Assembly: GCA_964406135.1 (NCBI GenBank)
Contig: CAYOQO010000001.1
Location: 34,439 to 98,438, forward strand
Origin: an uncultured Pseudomonadota bacterium
Lineage (GTDB): Bacteria > Babelota > Babeliae > Babelales > Chromulinivoraceae
Reading direction: 5' to 3'
DNA: 64,000 bases
Both the position numbers and the translations under genes were made by a program. The notes under the pieces are model-generated. The model was not told the origin of the DNA. It was given only the letters and a program-made list of their open reading frames with translations, and did no database searches. The stretch's first letter is position 1; each line of letters begins with the position of its first letter. Shown piece after piece: positions 363 through 5,277 of the stretch.

Positions 363-1985
363 ATGAAGGCGTTTGAACTTGTTTTAAGTATCAGTTTAAT
401 TATGTTAAGCATTTTTTCTGGATCTTTTTTTTATTCGTGCTATCAAAATTTTGTTCATCTTCAAACATCAATCAATCAACTTGAATATCAAATGATGCAA
501 AATGAAAATAGGTTGTTGCAAGCTGGAATATCGATGGATCATAATCTGCCATGTGCAACTGCCGCATCATCACAGTTGTGGGAAAAATTACAAAAAAATT
601 TACAAAATACGGTTTTGCAATTAATTGTCACAAAAAATGAAATCAATGTGTTGCAACCGTTTAAAGTGCCAAAACAGGGGCAAGATTTAGGTTCTGCATT
701 CATCATAAATTCTGATGGTGAAATTATTACCAATGCTCATGTGGTTAATGGTGCAATTTCGATTATGGTGCAAATGCCTTCATTTGGTAAACACCAATTT
801 GAAGTTGATTTAATTGGCATTATGCCGGAAAAAGATGTTGCGTTACTCAAATTTAAAAAAGAAGATATTGCAATGATTGTTAAAAGTTTAGGATCATTGC
901 CTTATTTGCAGCTGGGTGATTCTGATTCGGTGCATCGATCTCAAGAAATTTTGGCATTGGGCTATCCGCTTGGCCAGCAGTCACTTAAAAGTACTACGGG
1001 TGTAATTAGTGGTCGTGAAACGGGCATGATTCAAATGAGTGCGCCTATCAATCCGGGAAGTTCTGGTGGTCCATCACTCAATTGTTTAGGGCACGTGATT
1101 GGAATTAATACCGCAATCATTGCAGGGGCTCAAAATGTTGGCTACATTATTCCAATCAATGATTTAAAAATATTTTTGAATGATTTGCGCGTTGGTGGAT
1201 TGGTACGAAAACCATACCTTGGCGTTTATCAATCAATGGCGACTGCAGAACTTTTAAAAGCATTAAACAATCCATTACCTGGTGGTACGTACATTGTCGA
1301 TGTGATGAAAGATTCTCCATTGTACAATCAACTCAAACCTGGTGATATGATTTATGAAATTAATGGACTCTCTGTTGATTTGTATGGTGATGTGACGGTT
1401 CCTTGGAGTGAAGATAAAATTTCGACTGCTGAATATATTTCACGTTTAAAAGTTGGTGAAAAAGTAAAATTGTTGGTGTATCGCAAAGGTAAAAAAATGA
1501 ACTTTGAATGCACCTTTGACCGTAAAAAACTGTTGCCAATTCGTCAGATGTATCCAGAGTATGAAGAGCTTGCATATGAAATTTTTGGTGGATATGTGGT
1601 GATGCCACTCATGCTCAATCATATTCCACATTTGATTCAAACATCTACAAGTTTGGCAAAATACGGTGAAGACAAAAATCAAAATGAAGAACTTTTAATT
1701 ATTACCCATGTTATTCCAGATTCTCCTGCCTATCGCGCTCGCTTGAGGCTTGTTGGTTCAATTATTAAAAAAGTGAATGATGTTGAAGTTAAAACTTTGG
1801 CTGATTTGCAAAAAGCATTATTAAAATCAGGTGATTTAATTACCATAGAAACTGAAGAGCATATTTTGGTGGCACTTGATAAACAAAAAGTTTTGAAAGC
1901 AGAAAACGAGCTTGCACGTAAATATGCTTATCAAATTACCAAAGGTATGCAGCAGTTGTTGGATAAAAATGGAAGTGTGAAATAG
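363..1985 (+). CDS. htrA: HtrA/DegP-family periplasmic serine protease with PDZ domains
   Basis: Trypsin-fold triad motifs TNAHVV (His), DVALLK (Asp) and NPGSSGGPS (Ser), followed by two PDZ-like segments. N-terminal hydrophobic anchor. The ORF track starts at TTG 339, but ATG 363 sits behind an AGAAAGG SD and is preferred. Confidence 0.9.
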   Translation: MKAFELVLSISLIMLSIFSGSFFYSCYQNFVHLQTSINQLEYQMMQNENRLLQAGISMDHNLPCATAASSQLWEKLQKNLQNTVLQLIVTKNEINVLQPFKVPKQGQDLGSAFIINSDGEIITNAHVVNGAISIMVQMPSFGKHQFEVDLIGIMPEKDVALLKFKKEDIAMIVKSLGSLPYLQLGDSDSVHRSQEILALGYPLGQQSLKSTTGVISGRETGMIQMSAPINPGSSGGPSLNCLGHVIGINTAIIAGAQNVGYIIPINDLKIFLNDLRVGGLVRKPYLGVYQSMATAELLKALNNPLPGGTYIVDVMKDSPLYNQLKPGDMIYEINGLSVDLYGDVTVPWSEDKISTAEYISRLKVGEKVKLLVYRKGKKMNFECTFDRKKLLPIRQMYPEYEELAYEIFGGYVVMPLMLNHIPHLIQTSTSLAKYGEDKNQNEELLIITHVIPDSPAYRARLRLVGSIIKKVNDVEVKTLADLQKALLKSGDLITIETEEHILVALDKQKVLKAENELARKYAYQITKGMQQLLDKNGSVK

Positions 1986-2003
1986 GTCATTAACTATTGT
2001 TTT
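1941..2003 (+). repeat. Direct repeat copy 1 (authentic htrA 3' end, stop codon and about 15 nt downstream)
   Basis: AAAGGTATGCAGCAGTTG..GATAAA.ATGGAAGTGTGAAATAGGTCATT recurs at 5216-5277. Three substitutions over the first 51 nt, then a 2-nt indel and CTATTG. Confidence 0.85.
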
Positions 2004-2025
2004 TTAATTTGTATTTCAATATAAC

Positions 2026-5000: not shown

Positions 5001-5217
5001 AGGTCAAATTCAAGCTCAACAAGCTCAGCTGGAAAGAATATATCGACAGCAAGAAGCAACAACAACAAACATTGAAAATGATTCTACATTTTATCAAATG
5101 AAGCAACAACCGTTACCAAAAACATTGCCTTTACAAACACCGTCGTTGCAAAAACCGCCCTTGAGCATGCCAAAAGTTTCAAGTTTAAAAAGAGCTGCAA
5201 TGCGAGCTATAAAATAA
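2026..5217 (+). CDS. Large orphan secreted protein (1063 aa) with an internal 66-aa tandem duplication and a Q/P-rich tail
   Basis: Long uninterrupted ORF. N-terminal hydrophobic signal-like segment (LLLHILLSTIFGCMLF). No family recognised by eye. Confidence 0.75.
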   Translation: MKRLMKLKYKRNNMTLLLHILLSTIFGCMLFEQSLLAMHASKPLKINIKLLKGTHDISPYAYAPFWGLAVIENGLAQQWYEFCPKQQNKSIISVINNASQDLIVDKALVLKILAEYKNTALQDLVLQMFHLAGGTFTITNALNNPVQQFTPFIIGKILRMVHDAKIYDEAFIKSVEEFLVTLKLKDPAGKDFKAKDFRPFAKALAISLQEFAQGDKAPDKTLNVVQSVLLGFMLCKSNTKSDLEAYFSGFEGKSVKLSDEMYDSLEFTKIMENEISEELLLNNSKFADYVCATIYQNKYASNLPKMATNKGVKYQDYEFTDCIETTMFNLANIVTFDALQKRLGLKLPEHLFMNPQLTLFYKDELNSNPGEVDHNTVHQNWVSLVENIAGAAYNRIGLSVIGMKHAYIQINELYKKTIAGAIPVASFDPQLPVQEILINNQSYQCNVVNIGTEKYLLIPQSYNLICFELMPTVSNIVVIMNHLFDLKLINTIDDIFQPDFAFQQFKNLCEKFSWKIDDTELQKIKNDQKTMTLDVKTKDQDLFQIHMLHQAHGYVSIQNDAQSARYSLDAFYDWKKLAVCLSMGTVRNEDYGTIYEAGLYLYDPILNIDQRANIIKKHLDLMVELYMEYSDTYIAELIMSMANSEDNHYHDFYIHERVSINIVKAMFVMSFLVCIKYNNPTVLIQNLHIFLNKKILNKDQVVFLIEKILELNYDHLIYLSLWEYLEKYHQQFDIELLIKWIDQGIINNKASFKVWGLTNKILSKDQIIFLIEKILKLNDGDSIYPNLWRYLEESYQQFDKELLMKWIDQGIVSDKASYGAWDLAKIILNEHQLWQKIATSLKNRQNVLNIIWISAWLFLVELIQQGHIFKDPEQIDQIILWSDMYEDSISGKKMLNLIDNLVNNSPVSATHLLKIINLMKKHEEEWASTEELKVAFIDLQDKLLKKIPKNQTNQQPMMDFARNGTGALHATTPKLMRYDSVTEQMKYQKMIEGQIQAQQAQLERIYRQQEATTTNIENDSTFYQMKQQPLPKTLPLQTPSLQKPPLSMPKVSSLKRAAMRAIK
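4117..4512 (+). repeat. Tandem 198-nt (66-aa) in-frame duplication inside the 1063-aa ORF
   Basis: KDQVVFLIEKILELNYDHLIYLSLWEYLEKYHQQFDIELLIKWIDQGIINNKASFKVWGL is followed by KDQIIFLIEKILKLNDGDSIYPNLWRYLEESYQQFDKELLMKWIDQGIVSDKASYGAWDL. The units start at 4117 and 4315. Confidence 0.9.
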
Positions 5218-5277
5218 AGGTATGCAGCAGTTGCTCGATAAACATGGAAGTGTGAAATAGGTCATTCTATTGCTTTT
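5216..5277 (+). repeat. Direct repeat copy 2 (orphaned duplicate of the htrA 3' end)
   Basis: Begins one base before the end of the 1063-aa ORF stop codon. Would encode MQQLLDKHGSVK*, against GMQQLLDKNGSVK* at the true htrA C-terminus. Confidence 0.85.

Follow-up and report, generated by a model that had tools for sequence, protein, structure and literature searches.

Here we report that the terminus of the htrA gene occurs twice in a 64,000-nt stretch of Babeliales DNA (hereafter, the window), as the intact gene end and again, in direct orientation, at the far end of a neighboring gene for a large signal-peptide protein. We consider it probable, at roughly 0.7, that in its second copy the htrA terminus survives only as a non-functional relic, which arose by recombinase-independent duplicative recombination in a hypervariable interval, and that the enclosed gene is a resident of this interval that has been reshuffled. 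The recombination would have been illegitimate, at the level of microhomology, and would have taken place inside the interval bounded by the convergent htrA and NlpC/P60 genes, where the large gene would have changed its place or orientation relative to the sister species; its enzymology and the order of events we infer. The first-pass annotation had read the structure as the footprint of an insertion or recombination event, possibly one that brought in a cassette. Duplicative recombination at the htrA terminus appears to be genuine, but the enclosed gene, which has orthologues in the same interval of related genomes, is no foreign cassette.

The features of the interval are listed in Table 1. 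Comparison of window positions 1941-1991 and 5216-5266 gave 48 identical bases out of 51, in agreement with the three substitutions counted previously, and self-BLAST of the genome extended the pair to 1941-2004 versus 5216-5277 (58/64 identical, with one 2-nt gap). The recurrence of the htrA end is therefore real as described, except that copy 1 comprises the last 14 codons, not 13, and about 18 rather than about 15 nt of downstream sequence. Copy 2 was correctly placed inside the stop codon of the large gene, as position 5216 falls within TAA 5215-5217. A search allowing up to three mismatches found exactly two copies in the window, where the chance expectation is nil (0 in 100 shuffles), and BLAST detected only these two in the whole genome carrying the window (G000; 926 kb, 96% complete). 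The repeat is longer than 30 bp, direct and genome-unique, and it flanks a large gene, all of which are among the features of insertions with long target duplication.

Table 1. Features of the interval between htrA and the NlpC/P60 peptidase gene, in window positions
Feature	Position	Strand	Support
htrA, DegP-type serine protease with PDZ domains, intact	339..1985	+	Pfam Trypsin_2 1.8e-25, PDZ_2, PDZ_3; 85% identical to G007 orthologue
Repeat copy 1 (h): last 14 htrA codons, TAG, ~18 nt downstream	1941..2004	+	
Native upstream spacer of the large gene	2005..2064	+	Alignment with G004, G007
Large gene, 1050-aa signal-peptide protein; alternative upstream start 2026	2065..5217	+	
198-nt (66-aa) tandem duplication inside the large gene, 79% identical	4095..4490	+	
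Repeat copy 2 (h'), putative non-coding htrA-terminus relic; overlaps the last two bases of the large gene's TAA	5216..5277	+	
Relic: last 28 nt of a GIY-YIG gene plus 13 nt of 3' flank; 93% copy of 5871-5911	5271..5311	+	
Older copy of the tRNA-Arg upstream module plus tRNA-Arg nt 1-29 (t')	5335..5500	+	
tRNA-trailer-type hairpin, fused directly to truncated tRNA position 29	5501..5535	+	
Stand-alone 80-aa GIY-YIG nuclease gene	5656..5898	+	Pfam GIY-YIG 6.5e-16
tRNA-Arg(TCG), intact, then trailer hairpin	6022..6098	+	ARAGORN; Rfam tRNA 65.6 bits
NlpC/P60 peptidase gene, convergent with htrA; right border of the variable interval	6139..7251	-	Pfam NLPC_P60 7e-17; synteny with G007, G004, G002

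The enclosed gene had been described as an orphan ORF of 1063 aa. The large ORF is indeed present, but alignment with its orthologues places the likely start at ATG 2065, with an AAAGGA ribosome-binding site, rather than at 2026, and it is not an orphan: homologues of the 1050-aa protein were found in all nine of the nine same-genus genomes. The family is genus-wide and often multi-copy, and its matches were named only as hypothetical Babeliales/Dependentiae proteins. The protein consists of a conserved N-terminal alpha/beta domain (approximately aa 30-545), which is confidently modeled by AlphaFold2, a C-terminal alpha-solenoid, and a disordered Q/P-rich tail. No Pfam domain was found in it; at E<0.001, a Foldseek search of the AlphaFold2 model matched nothing in the PDB, where the resemblances were confined to alpha-solenoids, and profile comparison with PDB sequences yielded nothing beyond weak TOG/HEAT matches in the C-terminal half. 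Both copies of the internal tandem duplication correspond to one single region of the orthologue in the related genome G004. The deviation in GC content and codon usage that an acquired gene might show was not observed, and the composition is native: GC3 is 0.207 (32nd percentile), total GC is 0.293 (7.5th percentile), and among long genes the codon-usage distance ranks at the 51st percentile. Thus, judging from sequence comparison, the large gene appears to be a resident, fast-evolving member of a Babeliales family and not an imported mobile cassette.

In an HtrA tree, G000 and its closest relative, G007, are sisters, the placement of G002 being ambiguous; the HtrA proteins of G000 and G007 already differ by 15%. 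In the two closest relatives, G007 and G004, an orthologue of the large gene occupies the same interval between htrA and NlpC/P60, but inverted. The inversion includes tRNA-Arg, and positions ~2047-6098 of the window align in reverse to both genomes. In G007, the forward NlpC/P60 gene is followed by a reverse 273-aa gene, by the large gene and tRNA-Arg, both forward, and then by two further genes and htrA, all reverse, while in G004 the NlpC/P60 gene is followed by the large gene, both forward. These relatives possess the large gene without the repeats, and its presence in their interval speaks against a new arrival at this locus. No scars or repeats were found around the locus of the large gene, tRNA and htrA in G007. 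A sequence beginning with GTAGCGT after the gene stop in G007 has a possible homology to window positions 5304-5321, which is too short to serve as a polarity marker.

The interval downstream of htrA is different in every member of the genus. In G001, G005, and G006, tRNA-Arg(TCG) directly follows htrA, which amounts to an empty site at the level of gene order, in genomes whose divergence is too great for comparison base by base; at nucleotide level, no empty site is present in G007, the closest relative. Among 61 Babeliales metagenome loci, 20 carry a co-directional tRNA-Arg(TCG) within 3 kb of htrA, and copy 2 in the window sits upstream of tRNA-Arg(TCG), at the expected position of the original htrA end. 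For the inverted block, either polarity calls for two inversion events on the htrA tree. The genomes and metagenome contigs searched with htrA as an anchor included no intermediate, and the best metagenome match was 64% identical.

Upstream of tRNA-Arg, copy 2 and the GIY-YIG relic belong to a mosaic of small duplications. The two adjoin at an imperfect microhomology (TG, then C/T, then TTTT), and the junction at the stop of the large gene has a microhomology of AA. On the other side of the large gene, the spacer is homologous from about position 2010 to the upstream spacer of the orthologue in G004 and G007, and in G004 this spacer begins 3-5 nt past the NlpC/P60 stop. The t' module has an extended -10 promoter-like site at 5391-5419, and its upstream part is closer to the G007 tRNA leader than is the leader at 5963-6021. 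The intact GIY-YIG gene is flanked by 27-nt direct repeats at 5596-5622 and 5907-5933; in the other Babeliales loci fetched, no GIY-YIG gene was found between htrA and tRNA-Arg, and the only other copy lies downstream of a tRNA. A search of positions 1800-6300 for Rfam-type RNA families gave nothing beyond tRNA-Arg.

The duplication can be dated relative to the divergence of the two sister genomes. Since the repeat copies differ by about 6% (94% identical) versus 19% for the htrA DNA of G000 and G007 (81% identical), the duplication of the htrA end postdates the species split and is much younger than the separation from the closest relative.

Two routes to the present structure are proposed. 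In the first, a substantial possibility at somewhat less than even odds, the large gene would have been moved or inserted beside htrA with a long (~60 bp) target duplication, and copy 2 would be the original htrA end, still upstream of tRNA-Arg. When this route starts from a G007-like ancestor, it puts tRNA-Arg in the wrong orientation, and therefore a hypothetical ancestor or an extra event would be needed. In the second, to which we assign a nearly even chance, htrA and the large gene would already have been neighbors, whether from the ancestral state or through an inversion of the whole block with two breakpoints, before a tandem duplication and deletion or a templated patch. In the tandem variant, the segment comprising the htrA end and the gene would have been duplicated and the second gene copy deleted, with the junction between copy 2 and the GIY-YIG relic as the deletion scar, while in the patch variant a ~60-nt patch would have been copied in during break repair. 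The second route calls for either two events or a templated patch, which would be unusual and would have to fall precisely at the stop codon. Tandem duplication predicts a second copy or a remnant of the large gene after the htrA relic; none was found, and the GIY-YIG relic follows directly.

Similar structures occur elsewhere in the same genome. At metG, a lipoprotein gene missing from G007 and G004 is followed by a second copy of the final 96 nt of metG, and this relic is contiguous with the ancestral downstream gene; the locus is a precedent for the first route. An array on contig C8 is a precedent for the second: a 1060-aa paralogue of the large gene is followed, after 24 nt, by a 77-nt relic (88% identical) of the end of the gene upstream, and then by a second copy of the paralogue (89% identical). 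The gene-end-relic footprint is also found on contig C16, and stand-alone GIY-YIG cassettes are located at tRNA genes, where they are flanked by 96-165-nt duplications.

Several candidate mechanisms were considered and rejected. Transposons and insertion sequences carry terminal inverted repeats and a transposase, and generate a short (2-14 bp) target duplication. No terminal inverted repeats were found around the bracket formed by the two repeat copies, and no integrase, excisionase, transposase, or other mobility gene in or beside it, so this class was discarded. Insertion of a homing endonuclease was rejected because both the GIY-YIG gene and the GIY-YIG relic lie outside the bracket, downstream of copy 2. 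Non-homologous end joining was rejected because no Ku was found in the 96%-complete genome, and a horizontally acquired island because GC3 and codon usage are not deviant. A staggered-break inversion, or an inversion-associated duplication as a single event, was also rejected, since it predicts inverted duplicates at the ends of the block and not a direct copy inside it.

Import of the gene from a related strain by homology-anchored recombination appears unlikely. A donor fragment comprising an htrA end and the large gene would have recombined within htrA, while its far end joined illegitimately ~60 nt upstream of the recipient htrA stop, so that copy 1 would stem from the donor and copy 2 would be the htrA end that the recipient had before; the variants are a Campbell-type single crossover of a circle and homology-facilitated illegitimate recombination. 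The divergence of ~5-6% between the copies fits the range expected between strains of one species, and metG represents a genuine gene gain with the relic in its ancestral context. Copy 2 carries the G007 base at two of its three differences from copy 1, and the derived base at both of these G007-informative sites thus lies in the functional copy and not in the relic, which would fit slightly better with copy 1 from a diverged donor. The G000 protein is also slightly farther from its G007 and G004 orthologues (50-51% identity) than those two are from each other (55.6%). However, two informative sites and a 5% difference in identity are weak evidence, the composition of the large gene is native, and the donor arrangement, with htrA followed by a co-directional large gene, was seen in no other genome searched. 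The orthologue is already present in the same interval of the sister species, and a local origin is therefore simpler.

Site-specific integration of a decayed prophage, ICE, CIME, or cassette, with the repeats as attL and attR and a replacement htrA 3' end supplied by the element, is far less probable still. Elements that insert in gene 3' ends classically leave the intact end on one side and a displaced relic on the other; the geometry at htrA fits this pattern, and a tRNA gene is nearby. Against it, no mobility gene accompanies the bracket, the only tyrosine recombinases in the genome are two Xer-like ones, the repeat that would be the att core occurs nowhere else in the genome, and the relatives hold the gene without the repeats. 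Moreover, the single enclosed gene belongs to a chromosomal family with syntenic orthologues and lacks inverted terminal repeats. An assembly or scaffolding artefact was a concern, as this scaffolded k=55 MAG contains ~17 exact but artefactual 55-nt duplications on either side of 100-N gaps. This repeat pair, however, is imperfect (three mismatches and an indel) with copies 3.3 kb apart. An artefact is very unlikely because two independent Logan assemblies from different runs (SRR8893622 and SRR8893621) reproduce the pair base for base, being 100% identical to window positions 1-11217 and 1-8678, and there is no N anywhere in the repeat-bearing stretch. A motif repeated by chance or for a function, for instance a terminator common to both sites, is no more credible, given that 45 nt of the repeat are htrA coding sequence and not a hairpin, with the chance expectation at zero. 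Recombinase-independent duplication of the htrA end around a resident gene thus remains the preferred reading.

We regard the htrA relic as a real but fairly ordinary scar. Its setting, the htrA-tRNA-Arg-NlpC/P60 interval, is a hot spot in which a gene family of the host-interaction type is reshuffled, in an amoeba-associated Babeliales lineage whose genome is reduced and shows no obvious machinery of mobile elements. The recurrence of the footprint at metG and on contigs C16 and C8 suggests lineage-wide turnover of accessory genes via long duplications. A broader proposal, which we offer only as a speculative and rather improbable one, is that Babeliales recurrently place accessory genes, mostly secreted or surface, at the 3' ends of housekeeping genes without a recombinase and with 50-165-bp target duplications, breaks by the stand-alone GIY-YIG nucleases at tRNA genes being a possible trigger. 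If so, the htrA relic abutting the GIY-YIG relic would be one footprint of this placement process, and the direct repeats would permit later excision and reshuffling of the enclosed genes.

Among known systems, prophages, ICEs, and CIMEs insert in the 3' end of a gene, bring a substitute end, and leave a gene-end relic. The htrA locus resembles them in that the enclosed DNA has the intact htrA end directly at one side and the displaced relic at the other, with repeats that do not match perfectly, but it differs in having a single chromosomal gene with no recombinase, other element genes, or further att-like copy. In Helicobacter pylori, DNA duplication is reportedly associated with inversion, with inverted duplicates at both ends of the segment. 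Gain and loss of a surface or secreted-protein gene at breakpoints and the copying of a short segment are common to both cases, whereas at htrA the copies have the same orientation and copy 2 is internal to the inverted block. The closest comparison is with insertions with long target duplication, which have direct repeats of 46-423 bp, far beyond transposon target duplications (Furuta et al. 2010, Nucleic Acids Res 38:2428, PMC2853133; the earlier source is Nobusato et al. 2000, as given in ref. 37 of that paper). Such repeats are genome-unique, often overlap the 3' end of a neighboring gene, and enclose an insert without integrase or transposase; the published cases involve restriction-modification genes, with a nucleotide-level empty site in a conspecific strain, and the mechanism is unknown in the literature, although the authors suspect double-strand breakage (PMC2853133). 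The htrA locus differs from these insertions in that its gene encodes a secreted protein already resident in the interval of the sister species, and in that tandem duplication plus deletion explains the structure equally well. It shares with them the unique repeats of ~60 bp at a gene 3' end, here that of htrA, and the lack of integrase or transposase, and the Babeliales footprint may represent the same unexplained phenomenon as the restriction-modification genes in Helicobacter and Haemophilus, one that might be traceable here, where young examples exist.

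The 3' end of htrA is duplicated beyond a large gene encoding a signal-peptide protein. Positions 1941-1991 and 5216-5266 are identical at 48 of 51 bases, and genome-wide self-BLAST extends the pair to 58 of 64 with one 2-nt gap. Exactly two copies occur in the 64-kb window with up to three mismatches and 0 in 100 shuffles, and BLAST found no third copy in the whole 926-kb, 20-contig genome. The assembly is a k=55 scaffolded MAG. It contains about 17 exact duplications of 55 nt that border 100-N gaps (e.g., C1:26670-26879 and C1:100345-100554, neither of them in the window); they arose in scaffolding, from the overlap of k=55 contig ends, and are not biological. 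Unlike them, the htrA pair is imperfect, has 3.3 kb between its copies and contains no N, and window regions 1-11217 and 1-8678 are matched base for base by two independent Logan assemblies from different runs. The duplication noticed in the first-pass annotation is therefore real, as is the start of its second copy inside the stop codon of the large ORF; the duplicated segment does comprise the last htrA codons, the TAG and 3' flank, with 14 codons instead of the 13 counted there.

Features of the htrA-NlpC/P60 interval, related cassettes, and gene orders (G000, studied genome; G007 and G004, same-genus genomes; C, contigs of G000; arrowheads, strand)
Feature	Position	Description
htrA	339-1985	Trypsin_2 and PDZ domains (Pfam)
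Copy 1, htrA terminus	1941-2004	last 14 codons of htrA, TAG and ~18 nt 3' of the stop
Large gene	2065-5217 (+)	1050 aa
Copy 2, relic	5216-5277	starts within TAA (5215-5217) of the large ORF
GIY-YIG end relic	5271-5311	41 nt
Diverged 44-nt tandem duplication		3' of the GIY-YIG end relic, before the older tRNA-Arg leader copy
Older tRNA-Arg leader copy	5335-5535	with promoter and tRNA nt 1-29, joined to trailer-type hairpin
Intact GIY-YIG gene, then second leader and intact tRNA-Arg	3' of 5535	
GIY-YIG units and relative	window 5335-6098; C14:26400-27260; C3:72150-72650; C11:33280-33931; C8:17006-17370	
Gene order, G000		htrA>, large gene>, relic, GIY-YIG/tRNA debris, GIY-YIG>, tRNA-Arg>, <NlpC/P60
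Gene order, G007		NlpC/P60>, <273-aa gene, orthologue>, tRNA-Arg(TCG)>, <two small genes, <htrA
Gene order, G004		NlpC/P60>, then directly orthologue> (co-directional); contig end after

The closest relative is G007, whose HtrA is 85% identical and placed as sister, with 100% support, in an HtrA tree. In DNA alignment, window ~2047-6098 is reversed relative to G007 and G004, while htrA and the NlpC-NUDIX-oxidoreductase genes align forward; the native upstream spacer of the large gene is joined to the tail of copy 1 at ~2005-2010, and the NlpC/P60 stop lies ~10 nt from the tRNA trailer. The reverse alignment and tight joints thus show the whole block between convergent htrA and NlpC/P60 to be flipped relative to both genomes, with two tight breakpoints and the large gene-tRNA adjacency kept. 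The region 3' of htrA is different in every genus member. tRNA-Arg(TCG) lies directly 3' of htrA on the same strand, at 137-270 nt, in G001, G005 and G006. Among 61 Babeliales metagenome loci, 20 have it co-directional with htrA at no more than 3 kb, and none has it convergent; it is convergent with htrA in G002 and G007. On the HtrA tree, the difference between G000 and G007 costs two inversions under either polarity, so that either arrangement may be ancestral.

Only G007 carries a two-gene module between htrA and tRNA-Arg (L035:9718-10503), which consists of a 138-aa gene and a 117-aa gene, the latter with a weak, below-cut-off HTH match, and which may be a toxin-antitoxin-like insertion. 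On an ENA contig whose orthologue of the large gene is 95% identical to that of G004, an internal NlpC/P60 fragment (aa 265-284, 90% identical; L048:5463-5551) lies on the same strand, 28 nt past the orthologue stop and at the contig end; it is either another gene fragment at the stop of the large gene or a product of a chimeric low-coverage contig.

Alignment with orthologues places the start of the large gene at ATG 2065, with the ribosome-binding site AAAGGA upstream of it. Its description as an orphan does not hold, since homologues are present in 9 of 9 same-genus genomes (multi-copy in several) and a large protein database contains 12 relatives, all only "hypothetical protein" from Candidatus Babeliales/Dependentiae. 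The N-terminal domain (~aa 30-545) is conserved across the family, with invariant Cys and near-invariant His residues. The AlphaFold2 model is confident for this domain, beyond which it shows a solenoid of helices and then a disordered tail. The protein has no Pfam match, only weak TOG/HEAT matches among PDB sequences, and no PDB fold match at E<0.001; we regard it as a secreted protein of the host-interaction type. Total GC of the gene is low (0.293, 7.5th percentile); its GC3 is typical at 0.207 (32nd percentile), as is its codon-usage distance, at the 51st percentile of long genes, and therefore the composition check proposed in the first-pass annotation gives no hint of foreign origin. A 198-nt tandem duplication inside the gene (4095-4490, copies 79% identical) is found only in G000, both copies aligning with a single G004 region.

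The repeat copies differ by 6% and the htrA DNA of G000 and G007 by 19%; therefore, barring homogenisation of the copies, the duplication long postdates the species split. Similar divergence is seen in three further relic pairs, namely the GIY-YIG end (93% identity), the tRNA-leader copy (95%) and the first 29 nt of tRNA-Arg (100%). At the left junction, the large-gene stop and the relic have only AA in common; at the right junction, an imperfect microhomology joins the relic tail to the terminal 28 nt of a GIY-YIG gene. Between the -10 element and the tRNA-Arg start, both G000 leaders (5434-5451, 5984-5997) and G007 (L035:9509-9524) have a short hairpin whose stem sequence differs among them, which suggests a conserved leader structure. 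G006 (L042, reverse strand) likewise retains ~14 nt of a tRNA-Arg 5' end, which has a promoter-like sequence of its own, upstream of the intact tRNA-Arg that lies 3' of htrA.

All four 80-aa stand-alone GIY-YIG genes of G000 adjoin tRNA genes (Arg, Gly, Glu, Phe). The C14 copy has perfect 96-nt direct repeats on both flanks, including the last 19 nt of tRNA-Phe; a GIY-less 120-nt relative on C8 lies between 123-nt repeats (97.6% identical); and the window unit (~5501-5890) follows tRNA-Arg nt 1-29, between ~165-nt copies of the leader and tRNA 5' part. These units look like a small cassette family landing at tRNA ends with long target duplications. A hairpin is also found directly 3' of the tRNA-Arg, Pro, Val, Cys, Gly, Lys and Phe genes (e.g., window 6096-6130), with the CCA end as the start of its 5' arm (CCATAC...GTATGG and variants) and C..GCC next. 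The sequence CTTCGTATGG occurs 16 times in G000 versus ~1 expected, mostly at tRNA 3' flanks, and a second, tRNA-independent variant is present at 6 sites.

No integrase or transposase was found in or near the bracket formed by the two htrA copies (Pfam), nor inverted terminal repeats of the bracket; the genome encodes only two Xer-like tyrosine recombinases and no Ku. A single-event inversion with staggered breaks was rejected, because it predicts inverted duplicates at the block ends and the observed copy is direct and inside the block. Two routes to the relic remain, each with precedent in G000. The large gene could have been inserted or relocated with long target duplication, as at metG (C10:26115-26995, locus L133), where a 96% identical repeat of the last 96 nt follows a small lipoprotein gene (~170 aa) absent in G007 and G004. 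The metG relic directly adjoins the ancestral downstream gene, the order seen in G007, and the lipoprotein gene begins at a scaffold gap; the locus shows insertion with long target duplication in clean form, and its empty site can be identified. Alternatively, a tandem duplication could have had a unit starting within the upstream gene's end; later deletion of the second gene copy would give exactly the htrA arrangement, the relic/GIY-YIG junction being the deletion scar. The precedent is C8:42353-50792, where the 3' end of a 318-aa gene recurs as a 77-nt relic (88% identical), 24 nt past a 1060-aa paralogue of the large-gene family, with a second paralogue copy 0.8 kb on (89% identical over 3.2 kb); this array appears to be such a tandem duplication. 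In a third variant, a ~60-nt templated patch would have been copied in during break repair.

The gene could also have been imported, through homology-anchored recombination, from a diverged strain: at the two G007-informative sites, too few to lean on, the relic agrees with G007 and the functional copy carries the derived base, and the G000 protein is slightly farther from its orthologues, but nothing else positive speaks for it. Another relic, of 81 nt and 95% identical, repeats the 3' end of a 417-aa minus-strand gene on C16 (879-959 and 4555-4635, locus L134), 3.7 kb from the parent gene end and beyond six low-GC ORFs.

The htrA relic is a real, fairly ordinary rearrangement scar, and the recurring gene-end relics and tRNA-associated GIY-YIG cassettes with long flanking duplications are the lead of more interest. 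In its working, the relic resembles the gene-end relics of integrative elements, but it has none of the components that define these elements. Insertion with long target duplication is known for restriction-modification genes, with repeats of 46-423 bp that often overlap a gene 3' end and no mobility genes; its mechanism is not established, and double-strand breakage is suspected (PMC2853133). The htrA case shares the direct repeats and the lack of mobility genes, and the insertion or recombination event at the htrA terminus proposed in the first-pass annotation is partly supported; it differs in that the large gene is not absent from the locus in relatives, G007 and G004 having inverted orthologues. 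As to the empty site, G001, G005 and G006 offer one in gene order, with tRNA-Arg(TCG) next after htrA, and G007 has none. Insertion with long target duplication is the nearest described category.
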